From Octopus vulgaris (lineage: Eukaryota), in NCBI GenBank assembly GCA_951406725.2, contig OX597822.1:12462001-12526000 (forward strand): a stretch of DNA of 64,000 nt, written 5' to 3'. The notes beneath the pieces are model-generated. The model was not told the DNA's origin. It ran no database searches and was given only the letters and a program-made list of their open reading frames with translations. The position numbers and the translations under genes are program-made. The first letter of the stretch is position 1; each line of letters starts with the position of its first letter. This document shows positions 3,375 to 64,000 of this stretch, piece after piece.

Positions 3375-3710
3375 GGAGGCGCAATGGCCCAGTGGTTAGG
3401 GTAGCGGACTCGCGGTCGTAGGATCGCGAAAACACCTAAAAGCTCCACGAGGCTCCGGCAGGGATGGTGGTGATCCCTGCTGTACTCTTTCACCACAACT
3501 TTCTCTCACTCTTACTTCCTGTTTCTGTTGTACCTGTATTTCAAAGGGCCGGCCTTGTCACTCTCTGTGTCACGCTGAATATCCCCGAGAACTACGTTAA
3601 GGGTACACGTGTCTGTGGAGTGCTCAGCCACTTACACGTTAATTTCACGAGCAGGCTGTTCCGTTGATCGGATCAACCGGAACCCTCGTCGTCGTAACCG
3701 ACGGAGTGCT
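3375..3710 (+). mobile_element. tRNA(Arg)-derived SINE family B (OR-type octopus SINE-like), B box deleted
   Basis: A box tggcccagtggttagg, anticodon-like gacTCGcggtc. Homologous to the minus-strand copy at 35698-36073. Confidence 0.85.
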
Positions 3711-3920
3711 TCCATACATATATATATATATATATATATGTATATATGTGTGGGGGGGGGTGTATTACGGAGACGTACTTGCATAGCAAGTGACCTGATT
3801 TCAAATCGTGTGCTGAAACAAAATCAACTGCAGCGTGGAATGTGTTTATAAACCATTAAAAAACAAACAAAAACCGTTAAATTCATTTCAACATTTAAAC
3901 TCCGTGATGCAACAAGGAAT

Positions 3921-3970
3921 TTTGTCAGTGAACAGGTCGCGTTTCAAAGCGACGAAAATATTCTGGCAAA
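3921..3970 (+). ncRNA. Putative minimal type I hammerhead ribozyme, G3-C8 core variant
   Basis: tttgtca-GTGAACA-g-gtcgc(gtttcaaa)gcgac-GAAA-atat-TC-tggcaaa: 7-bp stem I, 5-bp stem II, palindromic stem III (AATATT). Confidence 0.65.
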
Positions 3971-4047
3971 TTAAAATTAAATGTTGAAGTGAATCTAAAG
4001 GTTTTTGTGTGGTTCTTAAATGGCTTATAAACACCTTCCATGCTGCA

Positions 4048-4085
<38 letters not shown>

Positions 4086-4242
4086 TGTATGTGCTATATT
4101 TTGTTGGAATTACAGTGTTAATATAAATAATTATGGGTATATTCATGCATGTTGACTACTAAATGCGTAACATGCCGAAACGTATTGAAACCCTTCCATT
4201 ACTACGTTGCCCCAGCATGGTCACAGCTTTGAACTGAAACTG

Positions 4243-4353
<111 letters not shown>

Positions 4354-4679
4354 AATTATTTATATTCTAATTATTTGTATTAACACTGTAATTCCAACAA
4401 AATATAGCACATACATCTATATATATTTCTGATAAGCAGGCAGTGAACTATAAATTATCTGTGTCTATTTGTATGCATGTGTACTTATAAGTATGCGCAC
4501 ATACAGTCGACTTTTTCTACACACATATATGATTTTTTTATAACATATACATATATTATATACACACCCGAATATATATAAACACATACACACACACACA
4601 TACATATATATATACAAACATGTGTATACATGCACCCCCCTCCATATATATATATATATACATAACTTGTAAATATACA

Positions 4680-8786: not shown

Positions 8787-8971
<185 letters not shown>

Positions 8972-9003
8972 GAGGTTTAAAAATGCAACTTTAAAGATGT
9001 TTA

Positions 9004-9051
9004 TTCACTTGACCGGTTTCACTTTTTTAGAAAAAGATTGTCAAAAGTAAA
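9004..9051 (-). ncRNA. Putative minimal hammerhead, U3-A8 variant (left arm of fold-back)
   Basis: Reverse complement of the motif at 9237-9284. Confidence 0.6.
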
Positions 9052-9236
9052 ATGTAAAAACTTTGTAAAATATTTGTTGTGTTAAGTACTGGTTGTCACA
9101 AAATATTACATACAATACATACATACATTATTTTGTAATAATAAGAAAATGTAACATTTTTATATTATTACCAAAGAATGTATATATGTATTGTAACCAG
9201 TACTTAACACAACAAAGCTTTTACAAAGCTTTACAT

Positions 9237-9284
9237 TTTACTTTTGACAATCTTTTTCTAAAAAAGTGAAACCGGTCAAGTGAA
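9237..9284 (+). ncRNA. Putative minimal hammerhead, U3-A8 variant
   Basis: tttactt-TTGACAA-t-cttttt(cta)aaaaag-t-GAAA-ccgg-TC-aagtgaa: 7-bp stem I, palindromic ACCGGT stem III, GUC triplet. Confidence 0.6.
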
Positions 9285-9362
9285 TAAACATCTTTAAAAT
9301 TGCATTTTCAAACCTCCTTTCATATATATTTCCACTCGTGCGGCACCTTATATTTCACTTTG

Positions 9363-13015: not shown

Positions 13016-13419
13016 TAAGTAGATGAATGAATTATCCTAGCATGGAAAATTCGGTTAACCGATACCTGGGTAGCAAATTCACGTCAGAAAACACGGTTGA
13101 AGCGACCTATTAAGGGTAGAAACTCCGGGTTCTTATGTGGAAATTTGTGTGTTTTTTATATGAATAAATGAAAGAATGGAGTTGAACGAAGATTTTAACA
13201 AAATTCCTTTACTCTCGACACATGTTTCGAAGCCGGCATACTTTTAATTCCGAAGGAATAAATGGTGCATTATGCCATCTTCTCATCAGGAAAGATAAGG
13301 AGCCTCTTTCAGCCACAAGACGACCATTTATTCCTACGGAATTAAAAGTATGCCGTCTTCGAAACATGTGTCGAGAGTAAAGGAATTTTGTTAAAATCTT
13401 CGTTCGACTCCATTCTTTC

Positions 13420-13428
<9 letters not shown>
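13014..13428. mobile_element. PLE-type terminal-repeat fold-back element in (TA)n
   Basis: ~105-bp inverted arms (13163-13268 vs 13324-13425) carrying a hammerhead. A deleted sister copy lies at 16067-16210. Confidence 0.7.
13212..13294 (-). ncRNA. Type I hammerhead ribozyme, canonical core, extended stem II
   Basis: Minus strand: ctttc-CTGATGA-gaagatggcata...tatgccggcttc-GAAA-catgtg-TC-gagag. Confidence 0.82.
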
Positions 13429-13492
<64 letters not shown>

Positions 13493-16007: not shown

Positions 16008-16070
<63 letters not shown>

Positions 16071-16214
16071 AGTAGATGAATGAATTATCCTAGTATGGAT
16101 AATTCGGTTAATCGATACCTGGGTAGCAAATTCACGTCAGAAAACACGGTTGAAGCTTCATGCCAAGGAATTTTGTTAAAATCTTCGTTCGACTCCATTC
16201 TTTTCATTTATATA

Positions 16215-16259
<45 letters not shown>

Positions 16260-20626: not shown

Positions 20627-21512
20627 ATAAACTTAGATATGTTTCGACCAAAGATTGGTCCAGGCTATGTCTAACTTAATAGCACCACCTGACAGGATTA
20701 TTTGAATCCTGTTTAAGTCAAGTTTTGTTTATGGTCCATTCAAGTAGTGAGTTTTTGTTGGGTGAGTTGTATCCAATTATGGGTGGCTTATCTGGTATTC
20801 CTTGAAGGAATCTATCCAGACTCCGTTTAAAGTTGATGGGGTCCAGTTCCTCTTTGATCTCTTTCGGGACAATGTTAAATAGGGCAGGGCCTGTTGAGGA
20901 AAAGAAATTATGTTTTAGTGTACATGTATGCTGTGATCTTGAATTGGGTAGAGGACGTATGGCTCGTGGTCCCAGTCTTGGATGAACCTTGAAGCTAATA
21001 TTCAGGTCGTTTGGGCAAAGTTGGCGGTATATTCTCCACATCGTACAAATGATGTACCGCTGGAGAGAGTAGAGTTTCAAGGCTTTAAGGCGATCCCAAT
21101 AATCGAGAGCAGCCATGCCTTCAATTCGTTTAGTGAGTGCTCTCTGGGGTGATTCAATCCTCGAGATGTTTTGTCTTGTATGGGGAGACCACAGTGGGCA
21201 GCAGTATTCGAGGTGTGGCCGTACAAAGGAGAAAAGAGGTATGATGACACCTTGTTCTCTGGACCGGAAAGTTCTTAAGAGCCAGGAACTCATCCTACGG
21301 GCTATATCGACCTTTTTGTTGATGTGTGCACTCCAACTGAGATCGTCATCAACAATTACACCCAGGTCTCTGATATTGTTAGAGGCTGTGAGCGGTTCCC
21401 CTGAAGGAAGAGACTATGGCTGTTTTAGTGAGGAATTTCTTCCAAAATGCATCAGCTCAAATATTCCCTCGTCCAGTTGCATTTTGTTTCTGTCTGCCCA
21501 TTGACTCACAGC
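20627..21512 (-). mobile_element. CR1-clade LINE, 5' truncated, with 3' stem-loop
   Basis: RT C-terminus QWADRNKMQL...IRDLGVIVDDDLSWSAHI...VRPHLEYCCPLWSP...DYWDRLKALKLYSLQR; 3' hairpin gacca-atctt-tggtc. Confidence 0.92.
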
Positions 21513-21823: not shown

Positions 21824-21938
21824 AAACGCATTATCGCGAACCCATGTCTAGGTACGAGCAGAATTTAGTCTAGTTGAAACATCTCTCACATATTTCAACT
21901 GCTCGGAATCAAATACACTCCAGTTACTGTGAAGAAAA

Positions 21939-22233
21939 TATCTCTCTTATAGTCAAAAGGTAAGAAAACACTCAGTTTGTCCAATGTCGCCATCTATTAG
22001 GAATCGCTTCCTGGTTTACCTCGACCGGGCGATCTATTAGCACAAATCAGTCAACATGGTGAGTGAATTATATATAAAGCTATTTCTTTATAAGTTCGTT
22101 CAGACTTGCCTCTCTTAGGTACATCTCATTCACAAGAGTTATAAAACTCGAAATATCGATGTATGGGATTCCTAATAGATGGCGACACAGGCCGAACTGG
22201 GTGTTTCCACAGCTTTTTACCATCAGAGAGATA
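21939..22233. mobile_element. MITE-like element (~295 bp, ~67-bp imperfect TIRs, TA ends)
   Basis: 21939-22005 is the reverse complement of 22167-22233; the inner 21 bp are perfect. Confidence 0.7.
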
Positions 22234-22289
22234 TGACAAATCTATTTCATGTAGCCTAAGTTCTGTTCATATATATATATATATATATA

Positions 22290-22686: not shown

Positions 22687-23424
22687 TAGATATATATATA
22701 TATATAATTTAAAACGTGAGTCAACAAGAAGGAGCACGGTTGGACATTTAACTTTTTGATCGCTTCAAATTGTTTTCACGCAACTTAGTTCTCCACCCGT
22801 GCAGGTATATGATTATGCAACTATTTACTTGCATAATGAGATCTAGTTGGTTTTCCTCGGTCGATAAGTAAATATTGTCTCCGTAAGTTCCCATTCCTTG
22901 CTTCAAGGACGTCCTCACTCTGTCGTGGTCTAAATTTAATAGTGGTCACTGAGTCTATCGTGGTGTGTTGTTTTTGACTGGTGGTCAGGCGGCCAGGGTT
23001 TGATACCTGGCATAGGAACGCATGTTTTTCACTGGTGGTTCTATAGCATGTCCGCAGCCTCAAGGCTGAAACATATAAAAAGATAAAAGAATATCGCTTG
23101 AGGAAAACCCACTGGAACTCATAATGCAGGGAGATAGTGGCATAATCAAATACCTGCACGCCTGGACAACTACGTTGCGTGGAAACAATTGTAGCGATTA
23201 AAAAATAAATGTCCAAATGTACCCCTTCTTGTTGACTCTAAATGTTTTCAATTATCTTTTCCTACACGAAAGAAGCCCAAGCGCAAACCTGGAAGAACGT
23301 GTGATACTACCAATGGATGGTACAGGGTGAATTCTGATGGTGGACAAGCTTTTATTCTGTACTCTAATACGTTCTTAATAAAATATACCATATATATATA
23401 TATACATATGCATACATACATGCA

Positions 23425-27162: not shown

Positions 27163-27440
27163 ATTTCGTTTTGGGATTTGCTTTGCAAGATTCTTTATAT
27201 GAGTTCGTGTGTTGAAGCATATTCTGTTGTGTCTGGGGAGAATCATTCTCTTTTAGTACCTTATTATTTAACACACTCACCGGTAAAATTTCCACTTGTT
27301 TCTTATTTTTATTTTCAATAGTCAAGACTATTGAAAAGGTTGCAAGACGCAAAGAAAAGTTTAGAAAATAAAAATAAGAAAAAGTGGAAATTTTACCGGT
27401 GAGTGTGTTAAATAATAAGGCACTTTCCCCAGACACAACA

Positions 27441-27441
<1 letters not shown>
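27163..27441. mobile_element. Palindromic PLE terminal-repeat element in (TA)n
   Basis: Arms fold about ttcaatagtc-aa-gactattgaa (centre 27324). The same repeat flanks the RT fragment at 58430-59040. Confidence 0.72.
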
Positions 27442-27484
<43 letters not shown>

Positions 27485-30618: not shown

Positions 30619-31380
30619 AGGGTTTTTTGCAACAAGTTGCTTAAACCACATACCGAAAATATTAGAAATAGCAGTCAAAGGGCTACTATTTCTTTTACTA
30701 CAAAAATAAGTCTCCACAAACAACAGTATTTGTAACTCACATAAGGTTTTTTTGCAACAAGTTACAAATACTGTTGTTTGTGGAGACTTATTTTTGTAGT
30801 AAAAGAAATAGTAGCCCTTTGACTGCTATTTCTAATATTGTCGGTATGTGGTTTAAGCCCCAGGAGAACGTCTCCTCCAGCTGGCTTTAGGCACACTTTC
30901 TGTGCCTTTCGGTATTTGCAAGGGGATGTCATCCTTCCCTCGTCAACCTAAGTGGCTACCAAGCTACAGTAACACCCACCCTTAGTGGTTAGCCATATTG
31001 AGATGGCAAATATACCTCACATTGTCGTGCAGTTACTGTTTATACCTCGTTCAGAGATTTATTATTGCTTGCATACACTTTTTCAAGATCAGTGACGAAT
31101 AGTTACTGGAAAAAGGATATAAATATTTGCATTGGGAACTCCTTTTATCGAAAACCGGTGATTGTCGTACGCTGATGACGGGCCAAGACCCAGAAACTGC
31201 AGTCCGTGCGTATCACTTAGGTTCACGAGGGAAGGTTGACCTCCCTTTGCAAATGCCGAAAGGGCACAGAAAGTGTGCCTAAAGCCAGCTGGAGGAGATA
31301 TTCTACTGGGGCTACAAGCTACAGTAACACCCTCCCTTAGTGGTTAGCCATATTGAGATGACAAATATACCTCACAAGAT
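30615..31380. mobile_element. Complex PLE-type terminal-repeat element with nested inverted and direct repeats
   Basis: IR 30639-30737/30760-30858, IR 30858-30945/31224-31313, DR 30955-31020/31310-31377; contains a hammerhead. Confidence 0.7.
31166..31210 (+). ncRNA. Minimal type I hammerhead ribozyme, canonical core
   Basis: cgtacg-CTGATGA-c-ggg(ccaaga)ccc-a-GAAA-ctgcag-TC-cgtgcg: 6-bp stem I, palindromic stem III. Confidence 0.8.
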
Positions 31381-31499: not shown

Positions 31500-32275
31500 G
31501 CTAACTCAGAGCAGTTGGGTCAAGGCTAAAAAGATATCTGATGCTGAATTTGGTGACGACAGGAGCAAACACAGTGCGGGAAGCAGAGGTGTTGATGTAG
31601 GATGTGGACACTGTGTCGATGTGTGTGGGCTGAAAATGAAGGAGAATAAGATGAAATATCTGATAGGGAAAATTTAGAATCCAGAGAGAATTTTGAATGT
31701 AGGCGGGAAGCCAACAGAGTTTGTTGAGGACTTCCTGTATCTGAGAGCAAATATTGGGAAGACAGAGGGTGATATAGTTGAGAGGAAGAGCAAATCCTGG
31801 GCGGCATCACACACCTTGAGAACTGTGTGGATGTCAGACCGTCGTAAAGGCTTGAAGATCCGTCTCTTTCTTGCTGCAGTGGAGTCTGTGCTATTGTACG
31901 GGTCTGAGACTTGGACACTGACCAAGAAACTCATTCAGATGGGGCATGTGTGCTACACGAGAATGCTGAGGATGACTCTAAACATTAATCAGTATACACT
32001 GAGGATGAACTACTCAGAGCTGTACGACAGCCTCCCAGTGGCTCGCTCGAAAATAATAAGGAGGTGACTGAGATTATCTGGGCATGCTCACTGTCTTTCA
32101 GAGTTGATACTGCTCCCACTGCTCCTGTGGGAGACTCTACAAGGACACATGAAAACAGTGAGACCGAGTATAACATATGTTAATGCCCTAAGGGAAACAC
32201 AGGATTTGGCAGCGATGATGAAGGACAACGACTGTTGGAGATAACTCGTCCTTGGATCTCGGTAATTGTACCCGC
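31500..32275 (+). mobile_element. RTE-clade LINE RT 3' fragment, decayed
   Basis: ISDAEFGDD, VEDFLYL, KIRLFLAAVESVLLYGSETWTLTK, YTRMLRMTLNI. Confidence 0.88.
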
Positions 32276-35697: not shown

Positions 35698-36073
35698 GCA
35701 CTGCGTCGGTTACGACGACGAGGGTTCCAGTTGATCCGATCAATGGAACAGCCTGCTCGTGAAATTGAAGTGCAAGTGTCTGAGCACTCCGCAGGTACGT
35801 GTACCCTTAGCGTAGTTCTCGGGGAGATTCAGCGTGAAACAGAGCGTGACAAGGCTGGTCTCTTTGAAATACAGGTACAACAGACAAAGGAAGAAAAAGT
35901 GAGAAAGTTTTGGTGAAAGATAACAGCAGAGATCCCCACCACCCCTTTTTGGAGCCTCGGGGTGCTTTAGATATTTTAGCTCAATAAACGCTCACAACGC
36001 CCGGTCTGGGAATCAAATCCACGATCGTACGACCGCGAGTCCACTGCTCTAAACACTGAACCATTGCGCCTCC
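35698..36073 (-). mobile_element. SINE family B, full length
   Basis: Reverse complement of 3375-3710 plus the B-box segment missing there. Confidence 0.85.
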
Positions 36074-39792: not shown

Positions 39793-40161
39793 GGGGTTAT
39801 GATAGGTAATGGTGTCAGTAAGACCCAAAGTTGTCAGGTAATGCTAAGTGCTATGGATACACCATAGTTAAGCTCCAGGTACGTTGATTATGCGAGCGAA
39901 TAAGGAAACCAACGTTAGGAATATATATCAATGTGTGTATATATAGATTTGTTTTCAGAATGAGATAAAAAAAAACCAAGGCTGTGAAGATTTTATCTAA
40001 ATTATATGTAAGTTAACTATTGCTTAACTATTTTCCCACACCGTCTCCGCTGAAGGGTTATAATAAATAAATATCCTGGAAACAACCGTAAGACCTATTT
40101 ATAAGTGTTAACAGCGTTGGTTTTTTATCTCATTCTGAAAAAAAACTGTTATATACATATT

Positions 40162-40200
<39 letters not shown>

Positions 40201-46370: not shown

Positions 46371-46885
46371 GCAGTGAACAGTTGAAAAAATAACAAAATA
46401 ATCAAAAATAGCAAAATAATCAAAAATAACAAAATAACCAAAAATGACAGAGAATACTGGAATTATTTAATATTTAGCGCGAAGCCCTTTAGCTTCAATC
46501 ACACTTTGACATCTTCGACTGCATGATGAAATTTAATTTTCAATTTCTTGCTGGGTGATATTATTCCATTCTTCCTGAAGGGCATTCCATAATTGCTCGG
46601 TTGTTCTAGGATTTCTGGCTTTTGAACGTTCTCCTAGAAATTTCCACACATTTGCAATAGAATTGAGGTCTGAGCTTTGAACAGGCCAATCCATAACAAT
46701 AACCTTTTCAACCTTGAGGAAGTTCATGACCATCTTAGCCTTGTGACATGGGGCATTGTCCTGCATGAATATGGGTGGTCGCTTAGTTGAATTTCTCAGC
46801 ACAGGCAAGACATGATCTTTTACCTCTCCATGTAATCGCACCAAAGGACCCACGCCATCTCCAGATATCATACCCCAAACCATGG
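46371..46885 (-). mobile_element. Tc1 transposase C-terminal fragment
   Basis: MVWGMISGDGVG, FMQDNAPCHKAK, DWPVQSSDLNSIANVW. Confidence 0.9.
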
Positions 46886-47699
46886 TCCGGGGTCAATACA
46901 ATAATGTTCCATTGACGTACGGCTGTTGAAGCAACCCGACTTATACGTCCCCTTAATACTGCTCGTCTTGAGTCAAAATTAGAAAGAATTATCATCACCA
47001 TCACCATCACCATCACCATCACCATCATCATCATCATCATCACCATCGTCGTCGTCGTCGTCGTCATCATTATCATCATCATCATAATCATCATTGCTCT
47101 TTATAAAGTTAACTTCCTTCTGCTATCTTTTCTTCTCCTTTATTTCTTTTTCGTCTTCTTTTTCTCTAATTCCGCCTGCAGTTCGATTGAACCGATAAAG
47201 TTATTCAAGGCCTCACATTCATTAGCTCAATGCCTTGGAGGTTATAGCAAATCGCCACAGCAATTTTCTACGACAGATTTTCCTTTGCACTTTTAAAGAA
47301 TGCTCTAATTAGTCATGCGACACCATCTTCTTGTTCAAGTTGCTGCTGCTGTAATGCTTCTCATTAATATTCTTGCCCTTGCTCTTGTTGTTATTTTCAT
47401 TATTTTGGATTTTTTGTGGTTACATTTTTAATTGTTATCTGATAGGTTTTTTTTCTTTTTTATTACCGGTTTTAGTTGGACGCTTTGGTTGCTCCCGCTT
47501 GTATTTTTGCAGATGATACTTCAACATCTCCATAGACATGCAGGAAGTAAATAGAGACATTTCATTTTTAAAACTTCTGATCTAGGCGCTTTAATATGTT
47601 TTCCGCGGTGTAGAATTTACAATATAATTATTCTTTTTCATTCCAGGAACCATTATATCAAATATTTGCAAAGAGTAACCATACCGCGCACAAAAGATT

Positions 47700-48047
47700 C
47701 AGCACAACTGTCATATTTTCAAAGCGGTCGTATTTTTGGGTAATCTGAGGCGAAAAATTGCCGAAAATCTTCAAATTCCTCTTGCTACTATTATTAGGAT
47801 TAAAGTGCATTTAAAAAGCAAAGGAAAAGAATCAACAGATTCTCTTCCCGGCCGACCTGGACCCTTGGAAAAGAAGCTTCGCTGTTTGAAGAGAATTGTG
47901 GAAAACGAGCCCCGTTCAAAGGCTTCTGACATTGCAAAACAGCTAGAAGTTACTCCAAGAACGTGTTTTACATATCTGCATAAGCTTGGATATTATGGAC
48001 GAGCAGCTAGAAGAAAACCTCTCATTCAACCAATTGATATCAAATAA
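47700..48047 (+). mobile_element. Tc1 transposase N-terminal (HTH) fragment
   Basis: RKIAENLQIP, PGRP, ASDIAKQL, LHKLGYYGRAARRKPLI. Confidence 0.85.
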
Positions 48048-57579: not shown

Positions 57580-57589
57580 AGAGAGACGC

Positions 57590-57870
57590 AGGTTTCAGTT
57601 CAACCAATCAACGGAACAACTCACTTGTTAAATTTACGTGCAGTGGTGAAGCAGTCCACAAACACGCGCACCCCTAACTGTTCTCAGAGGGATTCAGCGT
57701 GACACAGAATATGAACCGGCCCCTATTGAATTACGTGTATAACTAATCTTCGCCAGCTGAGTGGACTGGAGCAACGCAAAATATAGTGTCACAAAACGCC
57801 GCCGGGAATAGAACACACCGTCGAACGAGCGTGACCCGTTGACAGTAAACACTAAGCCACGGGTCTTAAA
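57590..57870 (-). mobile_element. SINE related to family B (shared 3' part, different CORE-like middle)
   Basis: Shares caacggaaca...gattcagcgtgacacag with family B; the middle is cagctgagtggactggagcaacg. Confidence 0.65.
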
Positions 57871-58429: not shown

Positions 58430-59040
58430 ACAGGTTGAGTAGTTGGTAGTATGGATGTGATTTCATTCTACCCAACCATAGACATAGATTTTGACGTGCA
58501 GAAATGTATTCAGGTAATCTGTGAAAGTGGGGTGGAGTTCCGTAAGATCAACACGTGGGAACTGAGCTTCCTCCTCAGGCTAAGCTATGACAGTAGCTAT
58601 TTAGATGACCATGACCTCAGTAGATTCTGCCCCACCAGGTCCAGAGAGGAAGACCAACCACCATCACTTCAGCATTGAAGAAAAGCACCACAGAGCGCTG
58701 GAGTGGCCAGAATGCACCTACCCAAAATCCTGAGAACAACAACCAGGTGAAAGAAATGATTGCACATGTAATAGGGGCCAGCGTAAAAACCACCTCTAGT
58801 AAAGTTTAACAAAAAAAACTATACATGCAGTTTCAAGGTGCAGCCATCGGTGTCGGTATAGCTAGAGATGTGGCTGGCCTCTTCATGACCTGGTGGGACA
58901 GAAGACTTAAACAAATCTTAGCAGAACAGTCCACAAGTCTTCTACTCTACACTAGATATGTAGATGACATTAATATAATAGTTAGAACCAACTCTAGTGA
59001 CGGTAATGTAGAGACTGAGACATGCACACACAGGGGGACA
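58430..59040 (+). mobile_element. Penelope-like RT fragment between inverted terminal repeats
   Basis: GSMDVISFYPTID, QFQGAAIG, YTRYVDD; flanked by 58312-58430 and an inverted copy at 59058-59125. Confidence 0.8.
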
Positions 59041-59499
59041 GAGGTATACACATATCTGTTAAATTATAAGGCACAAATAAAAATGACTCTCCCCAGACAC
59101 AACAGAATATGCTTCGACACACGAAGTATTAGGAGTTCAATAAAAACCATGCTTGTTCGGTAGTATATATATACACAGGAGATATATTTAAGCGTTTACA
59201 AAGAATTTGAGAGGAACCAACCAGTTTTCCTAGCATTTTTTGCTATGAAAACAGGTTGGCTCCTCTCAAATTCTTTGTAAACTCTTATATACAATTCCTT
59301 CTGTGTATATATACATTACTACCAAACAAGCATGATTTTTATTCAACTCCCAATACTTTTTGTTCAATATTTTCTTGAATACTTTCATGTAAACTGTTTT
59401 TGACATTTTCTTATTATTATCAAAGTATGTATATCTGTATTTTAATACTTTTATTACAACCAGTACTTAACACAACAAAGCTTATACAAAGATTTACTT

Positions 59500-59547
59500 T
59501 TTACTATTGACAATCTTTTTCTAAAAAAGTGAAACCGGTCAAGTGAA
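59500..59547 (+). ncRNA. Third copy of the U3-A8 hammerhead
   Basis: TTGACAA-tctttttctaaaaaagt-GAAACCGGTC-aagtgaa; one stem I mismatch. Confidence 0.55.
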
Positions 59548-62230: not shown

Positions 62231-64000
62231 CCCTACCAAGGGAAAGAATAAAGCCTTAGACCGCTATTGTGACTACATAACTAATTTCCCTTTTCAATTC
62301 ACCAAGAAACAAAAACACAGCCAAAACTTTAACAAAAGAGAATGGAACGACCTCATCAAACTAAGAGAAGACAAAACAATAACAATTAAGGAGGCAGATA
62401 AGGGCAACGCGGTAGTATTAATGAATACAAACGATTATAAAAATTTGGTGCTATCCCTATTAAGAGATGAAACGTATTATGAAAGGGCCGAACAGTATAA
62501 TCAGCCAAAAATAATGTATAACCTCAGGACATTAATCAACAGATACCGCGAAGGACTCACGGACAAGGAGTACGAATACATCACTAACTTTAAGTGCAAA
62601 TCAAGTTTGTTCTATGGTATCCCTAAAGTCCACAAAAGCCAAATAATTAGTGAAACATGCAAAACATCTACCGATATACTCATCAAAATCCCTTCACCAA
62701 ATGATCTTAAACTTAGACCGATAATAGCAGGCCCAGCATGTGAAACTCACCGCCTCAGCAATTTCTGAGACACACTTCTTAAACCTTTCCTAAAGCACAT
62801 CAAAAGCTACGTAAGAGACGATATAGACATGCTTAACCAACTCCCAAAAACAGTTAATGAGAAAACACTTCTAGTATCCTTCGACGTAATTAACCTTTAT
62901 TCAAACATCCCTCACACCCTAGGAATAGAAGCGATCACTTTCTGGCTAAATAACTACTTCTTTGAACTCCCAACTCGCATAAATAATGAACTTATAATAG
63001 AAGGACTTAGATTTATTTTAGAAAACAATTACTTTATTTTTGACAATAATTTCTACAGACAAAGATCGGGAACAGCAATGGGCACGCGTACTGCGCCTTC
63101 TTTTGCCAACCTAGTGATGGGATACCTCGAGAAAATACTCTACCAGAAAACACTCGAGAAATATGGAAACACCTTCTCCACCTATATCCAGAACAACTGG
63201 AAAAGATACCTCGATGACTGCTTTATCCTCTGGGATAAAAGTATAGAGAAACTTGAGGAATTCAAAACACTATTAAATGGAATAAATGATAATATTCAGT
63301 TCACGATGGATAATAACGAAGAAGAACTGCCATTTTTAGACATCCTCATTAAGAAAGCCGGCAACAAAATAGAGACAGATATCTATTATAAACCGACAGA
63401 CTCCAAGCAGTACCTACGCTTTGATTCATGCCACCCAAGACACACTAGAATAAATGTCCCTTTTTGTTTAGCTAGAAGGATTTGCACCATGATATAAGAC
63501 TCAAACACCCGACACACACGTCTCCAGGAACTTAGAACTACACTCATAAATAGAAATTATCCACAGCCCCTAATAAACAGTGCAATCCAACGAGCACTTA
63601 AATTAAGCATAGAAGACCTGAGACAAACAAAACCAAAAAAGAAAGAAAAATTAAAAACCCTTCCCTACATCTCTACACACAACCCACTTAACAATGAGGC
63701 CTTCAGCACCATACTACAAAGCACAGCTATACTAAAGGGAGACCCAAAGATGAACCGGATCCTCGAAACACACACCATCATTAAAAGTAAACGGCAATCA
63801 AAATCCTTGAAAAGGATTTTAACCCAAGCTAAACTGCACTCAACATCAACCATAACACCAGCAGTTAGAAAATGTGGAAAGCCCAACTGCGGAATCTGTG
63901 TCATCTTGGTAGAAGGTTCAGAATTCATATTAGAACAAGGCCATCAGTTTACCATCAGAACAAACTTCACCTGTGCATCATAAAACTTGATTTACGTCTT
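62230..64000 (+). mobile_element. Penelope-like element (Neptune-like): RT, Cys linker and start of GIY-YIG; 5' truncated, runs off the window
   Basis: One reading frame with three stops (62766, 63495, 63981): KEADKG, FYGIPKVHK, LRPII, SFDVINLYSNI, GTAMG, RYLDD, LPFLD, SCHP, CGKPNCGIC, C..*NLIYV. Confidence 0.95.

Follow-up and report, generated by a model that had tools for sequence, protein, structure and literature searches.

Organization of the Locus

The window, meaning the whole stretch of 64,000 nucleotides that was analysed, consists of eukaryotic DNA rich in microsatellites, in which decayed retroelement frames are found and the repeats may resemble those of an octopus. Near its left end, two truncated copies of one repeat end lie head to head between (TA)n runs, the forward copy carrying a hammerhead fold, and a short G run (3752-3760) stands between the left (TA)n and the end of the element. 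The features, numbered from the first letter of the window, are as follows.

3718-3748: left (TA)n-rich microsatellite, from the sequence
3763-3898, minus strand: copy of the last approximately 136 nt of the family 3' end, inverted and 5'-truncated, without hammerhead
3763-3824, minus strand: tail, approximately 62 nt of the family 3' end, present in the inverted copy only
3825-3898: left arm, with 64 of 74 columns equal to the reverse complement of 3977-4051
3899-4051, plus strand: forward, 5'-truncated family copy with the hammerhead, matching the family from about 3906
3921-3970, plus strand: minimal type I hammerhead fold, from a descriptor scan and predicted pair probabilities
3921-3927/3964-3970, plus strand: stem I, 7 bp with one U.G, predicted pair probability 0.64-1.0
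3928-3935, plus strand: core strand G3 U4 G5 A6 A7 C8 A9 and an extra G, all family-majority letters
3936-3940/3949-3953, plus strand: stem II, 5 bp, predicted pair probability 0.98
3941-3948, plus strand: loop II, from the descriptor scan
3954-3963, plus strand: G12 A13 A14, the palindromic A15.1-U16.1 segment and N17, from the sequence and run contigs
3977-4051: right arm, ordinary family sequence 3' of the hammerhead, from alignment and contigs
4052-4084: right (TA)n target microsatellite, from the sequence

The hammerhead fold, of type I and located on the plus strand by scanning the window with a descriptor, has its GUGAACA core at 3928-3934 (G3 at 3928 and C8 at 3933), followed by the extra G at 3935, GAAA at 3954-3957, the palindrome AAUAUU at 3957-3962 and N17 at 3963, which is C here and U in the family, the predicted scissile bond being 3963/3964. 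The original prediction had described a stem I of 7 bp, a stem II of 5 bp, the GUGAACA core, the extra G and the AAUAUU palindrome, and all of these are borne out at their coordinates. The hammerhead consensus letters are present at U4 G5 A6, A9, G12 A13 A14, A15.1-U16.1 and H17, and G3928 and C3933 are complementary, so that a Watson-Crick 3-8 pair is possible, although as a tertiary pair it is outside the model of the folding program. Meanwhile, the literal consensus of C3 and G8 (or U3 and A8) fails, as the locus has G3 and C8, and it is therefore filed as a variant and not as a standard member. The G10.1-C11.1 pair is present, and the nucleotide following A9 is a G, outside the consensus at that place (A, C or U).

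Regarding chance, no equal motif (stem I of at least 7 bp, stem II of at least 5 bp and any Watson-Crick 3-8 pair) was found on either strand when the whole window was subjected to 150 block-wise dinucleotide shuffles. The stretch 3800-4080, which includes some (TA)n, folds with a z of -13.4, none of 200 shuffles being as stable. Rfam gave no hammerhead match at the gathering score in the whole window and none up to E=10 in 3700-4300, and the folds with canonical cores elsewhere in the window likewise lack an Rfam match at the gathering score. The top sub-threshold Rfam match, MIR8562 (40.5 bits vs 211), was set aside, as it reflects the long hairpin only. In the predicted monomer, stem III is absent, with a probability of 0.0 for A15.1-U16.1. 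Taken as a whole, we are confident that the motif derives from a hammerhead or functions like one.

The Repeat Family and Its Core

Among 24 public runs listed, 14 contain part of the stretch, no RNA run being listed among these 14, and four were analysed through contigs at least 80% alike: X1, X5 and X10, which are three of the 14 and bear the organism labels A, C and E, and X16, whose identification as RNA is a guess. The contigs matching the stretch number 6040, 3455 and 3639 under the labels A, C and E, respectively, and the presumed RNA run X16 contains 988 family contigs, which show neither transcription, strand nor ends and give no site rich in molecule ends, a feature that contigs cannot reveal; these figures count aligned contigs, and summed depth is not taken as copy number. 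The stretch is a very abundant repeat common to related organisms, with independent support coming from X5 and X10, X1 possibly having the same source as the window.

In the contigs of the four runs, G3 and C8 are the majority letters of the family, and GUGAACAG is its standard core. No difference at 3917-3938 occurs among the 40 listed of 49 difference rows, and the tallies of all four runs are free of G>C changes; therefore, G3 is not replaced by C in 3% of the depth or more. The C>G tallies (2, 1, 2 and 2 across the runs) are accounted for by positions 3802 and 3945, which in X1 holds only if a row of 2.7% is counted as 3%, and no C3-G8 subfamily reaching 3% was found in the four runs. In X1, rows outside the core suffice to explain all A>C, A>G and A>T tallies; thus, no core A varies at 3% or more in that run. 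The original prediction had considered a complete swap of the 3-8 pair unlikely to be decay, naming a different core in most copies as the observation that would speak against it. The contigs carry no such majority and, as G3 and C8 are family-wide without any tallied G>C, the swap was inherited and is not decay of the window copy. Letters common to all copies of a repeat show shared descent and not activity, and no C3-G8 relative of the same family was found, so that covariation within the lineage is not demonstrated.

As for variation among copies, three of the eight loop II sites are variable in X1 versus two of the 42 other hammerhead sites (Fisher p=0.024), and the non-loop hammerhead (2/42) also varies less than the flanks (22/118; Fisher p=0.042); both tests are modest, treating sites as independent and using 40 of 49 difference rows from contigs, which drop rare variants. 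Loop II additionally has two insertion sites among copies. The variant at 3966 (A in 71-89%) turns U.G into U-A and keeps stem I, and the one at 3939 (5-9%), a CpG site, breaks one stem II pair. A pseudoknot between the core and loop II (3929-3932 with 3943-3946) is possible in the window copy; it was rejected as a family trait, 3943 being C in 63% of the X1 depth.

Outside these runs, the family 19-mer had no match in viral sequences. Three metagenome pattern matches were discarded, being located in GC-rich bacterial-type DNA without stem I or flanking likeness, as was one match in a bacterial genome, without GAAA or stems.

Origin of the Fold-Back

The arms 3825-3898 and 3977-4051 align over 74 columns, with 64 identities, 10 mismatches and one gap, their limits falling within two bases of the 3826-3900 and 3977-4051 proposed at first, and the (TA)n expected beside the fold-back starts at 4052. 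The inverted copy (3763-3898), which holds the left arm and the tail, is recognized by the family depth over 3768-3837, by contigs that cross from the right arm to 3822-3826 on the opposite strand and by the arm alignment. The forward copy stops approximately 62 nt before the family 3' end. In other copies, the end of the tail at 3763 abuts (TA)n (45 contigs in X5 and 11 in X16), the loose end behind 4050 in X5 continues into the tail sequence of 3763-3824, and contigs leading from the right arm past 4050 continue, on the opposite strand, with the 3763-3825 sequence. On the upstream side, pieces 3905/3906-4031 are seen in several contigs, and the family continues above 3906 with other letters.

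Joints between opposite strands also occur in other copies, at 3863/3998, 3865/4007, 3897/3945, 3904/3967, 3920/4000 and 3942/4004, supported by one or two contigs each and belonging to the 15 of 52 joints listed. Considering the arm mismatches on the plus strand, two of the ten stay paired as G.U, eight break the pairing and none is compensatory, and in predicted folds stems I and II are formed just as well when the arms are absent. That the hammerhead and the fold-back are specially linked, as suggested by the original prediction, is not supported, since the arms are the same repeat end, their decay is uncompensated and the joints are scattered among copies. The fold-back itself is ordinary and very probably a by-product of insertion.

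Other Elements in the Window

Other families in the window also have (TA)n-flanked fold-backs, which hold C3-G8 or U3-A8 hammerhead folds. The one at 8960-9328, with 154 of 163 arm columns identical and a third copy near 59507, contains two inverted U3-A8 folds (9244 on the plus strand and 9044 on the minus strand) with the palindrome ACCGGU and C17, the base of stem II being a U.U mismatch. A C3-G8 fold is located at 31166-31210 on the plus strand, having an 8-nt palindromic stem III, ACUGCAGU, and C17, in the loop of the fold-back 30856-30954/31214-31313, with a second fold-back (30639-30858) adjoining. The fold-back at 13157-13432 (arms 106/110 identical) also holds a C3-G8 fold, with its core on the minus strand at 13289, a stem II of about 12 bp and a GUC site, and a related fragment is found at 16068-16217. 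Further unrelated fold-backs, most of them near (TA)n, lie at 21938-22234, 22704-23255, 27219-27446, 39921-40172 and 59124-59358, where a loose scan gave no clear hammerhead.

Directly to the right of the locus, a short element (4075-4426) encloses a long (TA)n between inverted ends (4075-4133/4368-4426, 98%), and hammerhead-like remnants (a hairpin and GAAACGU) without an intact core are seen at 4150-4195. To the left, 3375-3709 is a dispersed repeat of about 340 bp with copies at 35698-36073 and 57585-57743, beginning with a tRNA-like box sequence and probably a SINE. Decayed frames recognized by eye at 20718-21413 (minus), 31678-32067 (plus), 46533-48047 and 58810-59163 (plus) resemble the ends of non-LTR reverse transcriptases (RTs), a fragmented Tc1/mariner-type transposase and a further piece of RT; Pfam gave no match for the three that were scanned.

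Position 17 and the Predicted Cleavage Triplet

In all four runs, U makes up 99.2-99.9% of the depth at position 3963, the family triplet being UUU, and the C17 that makes the triplet UUC is private to the window copy. Cleavage after UUC, as originally predicted, is consequently not supported as a family trait, considering both the family U at 3963 and the predicted G3-C17 pair. With C17, helix I is predicted to be extended by G3-C17 (p=0.985), and with U17, G3 is predicted to form a weaker wobble (p 0.46-0.68). The predicted G3-C17 pair mirrors the C3-G17 trap proposed for minimal hammerheads, described as inhibitory in the available part of PMC3884650, where a G3-C8 variant is also said to be more active with G17 than with C17, the data not being shown there.

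In terms of secondary-structure energies only, the dimeric hammerhead fold is at +2.0 kcal/mol relative to two free monomers with the family letters at 3963 and 3966 and at +6.4 kcal/mol with those of the window copy, and it is placed 3.3 and 7.7 kcal/mol above the dimer minimum, respectively. Because C17 is predicted to trap G3 and the dimeric fold to be costlier, the window copy probably has a lower capacity for cleavage than its parent. U17 was rejected as proof of co-adaptation with the swapped pair, since by our own count it is found in 24 of the 56 published PLE hammerheads of PMC4209133, nearly all of them C3-G8, in the portion of that work at hand; the UUU triplet occurs in one of the 56. 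Regarding other natural G3-C8 hammerheads against which a rule for positions 3 and 17 could be held, a scan of viral contigs with a degenerate core had 119 loci among the matches listed (about 380 estimated), and none of the 119 passed a three-helix filter.

Comparison with Known Hammerheads

The most suitable place for the motif is as a variant among the minimal dimer-type hammerheads that Penelope-like elements (PLEs) carry. As far as the accessible text of PMC4209133 describes them, it shares with these the layout of type I, a single additional nucleotide separating A9 from G10.1, the G10.1-C11.1 pair, a stem III region that is palindromic and has, as in Drosophila, a loop of 2 nt, an NUH site with U17 (in the family), U-rich 5' and AU-rich 3' flanks and an occurrence mostly as solitary truncated copies with some inverted pairs. 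Both the extra nucleotide and the palindrome are published traits of PLE hammerheads. However, there are differences: our count from Fig. S3 of that source gives 53 C3-G8, three U3-A8 and no G3-C8 among 56 motifs, the extra nucleotide is G here, where the consensus is H with G in 1/56, and the 7-bp stem I is longer than usual.

The same swapped pair is known from engineered C3G/G8C double mutants (PAc of Anolis, PMC11167929; PMC8495972; PMC3884650), in which cleavage is partially rescued, including in a PLE hammerhead (PMC11167929). These are laboratory mutants, whereas the pair described here is natural, family-wide and accompanied by U17. Within the literature searched, which was not exhaustive and partly in excerpt, no report of a natural G3-C8 hammerhead was found, G3-C8 being found there as laboratory variants. 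Natural covariation at 3-8 is represented by U3-A8 (Perreault et al. 2011, PMC3088659, as far as its excerpt goes; Schistosoma PLEs), which is also present in the window. Nevertheless, U3-A8 keeps a pyrimidine at 3 and a purine at 8 through transitions, whereas G3-C8 reverses both and needs two transversions.

The Parent Element

The parent of the family is, in our judgement, highly likely to be a PLE, a membership that rests on anatomy, namely truncation, inverted copy, tail and (TA)n. PLEs are described as having inverted copies with 5' truncation, tails on one side and targeting of (TA)n (PMC8557442, in part), and inverted hammerhead pairs 100-700 bp apart were already noted in 2014 (PMC4209133, in part). 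At the locus, the element is 5'-truncated and carries at this end an inverted, likewise truncated copy, and the family has the (TA)n insertion bias and a dispersed high copy number, with thousands of contigs per DNA run. A one-sided extension is present too, but of approximately 62 nt versus the 30-40 bp given for PLE tails in the relevant section of PMC8557442. Compared with the insertions of the endonuclease-bearing PLEs Neptune and Naiad, as presented in that section (Craig et al. 2021), the locus has the same 5' truncation, inverted copy, tail on one end only and (TA)n target, and it differs in measuring approximately 290 bp, lacking an ORF and having the longer tail.

No ORF with RT and GIY-YIG linked to the family was found at the locus. 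At the right end of the window, 62244-64000 (plus strand) holds a broken PLE-type ORF, in pieces amounting to three frames' worth with stops between and cut by the window end; it matches the RT family PF00078 (E=2e-7) and has, near the window end, a C-x4-C-x2-C motif like the linker described for the Neptune clade. This ORF shares no DNA with the repeat family. Exact short terms from the family gave no matching context in the published Naiad consensus sequences, where line breaks could hide a match.

Proposed Mechanism, Activity and Alternatives

The explanation that we favour, and hold to be fairly likely as a whole, is a pair of truncated insertions of PLE type whose G3-C8 motif is the standard of its family and at most a slow cutter. 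The PLE endonuclease would nick (TA)n and the RT would copy the RNA's 3' end, with two start sites for copying, so that one cDNA would begin approximately 62 nt further 3' and give the tail; copying of PLE RNA 3' ends from two start sites is indeed reported to produce a tail (PMC11167929, in part). Two short cDNAs joined in inverted orientation would then form the fold-back without the need for an RNA hairpin. In a parent tandem transcript, two motifs could pair through the AAUAUU palindrome to form stem III, G3-C8 would take over from C3-G8 the task of placing the residue-8 2'-OH, and slow cleavage would follow behind U17, probably requiring a dimer or a helping protein, perhaps that of the element, as shown for PAc (PMC11167929, in part). 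The swap would have been fixed before the family expanded and kept because the 3-8 pair was preserved. The window copy would be a decaying passenger, solitary, with uncut upstream sequence copied and with C17 locking G3 into helix I.

As reported for PAc in excerpts of PMC11167929, the single mutations C3G and G8C abolish cleavage and the double swap partly restores it. Furthermore, in the CChMVd hammerhead an extra G after A9 is strongly harmful, and an extra C likewise (PMC3705267, in part), the latter being often carried by PLE hammerheads (PMC4209133, in part). Judging by other hammerheads and by prediction, the family has three features that lower activity: the swap with its partial rescue, the extra G and the G3.U17 wobble. 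We lean slightly towards measurable cleavage by the family version, and we consider cleavage of the window copy in vivo improbable.

The reading that survives best beside it, though unlikely, accepts the PLE end as described and takes the motif to be a hammerhead that no longer cuts, fixed by drift in a master element, amplified since transposition needs no cleavage and with its stems kept for protein binding or for folding at the RT start site. According to the part of PMC11167929 at hand, hammerhead mutants of PAc show no reduced insertion in vitro, which would allow an inactive motif to travel with the element, and in vivo the hammerhead site showed no RNA ends. PLE minimal hammerheads are described as cutting weakly, with other functions not excluded (PMC4209133, in part), eight of nine Xenopus dimers tested did not cut (bioRxiv 10.64898/2026.07.22.740005, in part), and the three weakening features of the family core add up. 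On the other hand, two transversions that exactly restore the 3-8 pair are hard to obtain without past selection on the catalytic core, and the other core letters are intact, with the variation shifted to loop II.

The second alternative, quite improbable, supposes another kind of non-autonomous element, either a non-LTR retrozyme monomer spread via circular RNA or a MITE-like fold-back DNA element. It agrees with the absence of an attached ORF, with the great abundance of short copies, with a joint from 4052 back to 3947 seen in one contig each in X1 and X10 and with the derivation of animal retrozymes from PLE ends (bioRxiv 10.64898/2026.07.22.740005, in part). However, the family extends upstream of 3906 and ends on (TA)n; a retrozyme is opposed by the single motif and the lack of head-to-tail tandem units within the window, and a MITE or fold-back DNA transposon by the lack of fixed terminal inverted repeats, the arms being internal family sequence with scattered joints.

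Finally, a single selected RNA structure, with the fold-back as a rod presenting an active ribozyme that cuts after UUC, is scarcely credible: the motif is set apart by the arms, and the minimum-energy fold does contain stems I and II, but these stems form as well without the arms, most arm mismatches (8/10) break the plus-strand pairing with none compensatory, the joints vary between copies, no listed contig spans the whole stretch (a gap that by itself proves nothing), C17 is private and predicted to be inhibitory and no partner motif for stem III lies nearby.

Significance of the Swapped Pair

Returning to the favoured pair of PLE-type insertions, the purine-pyrimidine reversal at 3-8, a standard rescue in the laboratory, is here the standard form of an abundant natural repeat, and the thousands of contigs per run under three organism labels make the consensus, subfamilies and decayed copies comparable. 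It also exposes a gap in what hammerhead descriptors and Rfam models detect. The family bears on the question of whether cutting is obligatory for PLE hammerheads: if a core with these three weakening features cuts, catalysis would be under selection, and if it does not, the fold would be kept for another role.

A stronger and rather doubtful version sees in the family hammerhead a working G3-C8 ribozyme, naturally selected and adjusted to slow cutting, with U17 kept since C17 would pair with G3 and switch it off. If true, pairing between positions 3 and 17 would be forbidden as a rule, and one animal genome would hold PLE families with C3-G8, U3-A8 and G3-C8 cores. Surveys based on CUGANGA would then have missed a very abundant class of retroelement ribozymes, perhaps including PLE clades that are now said to lack hammerheads.
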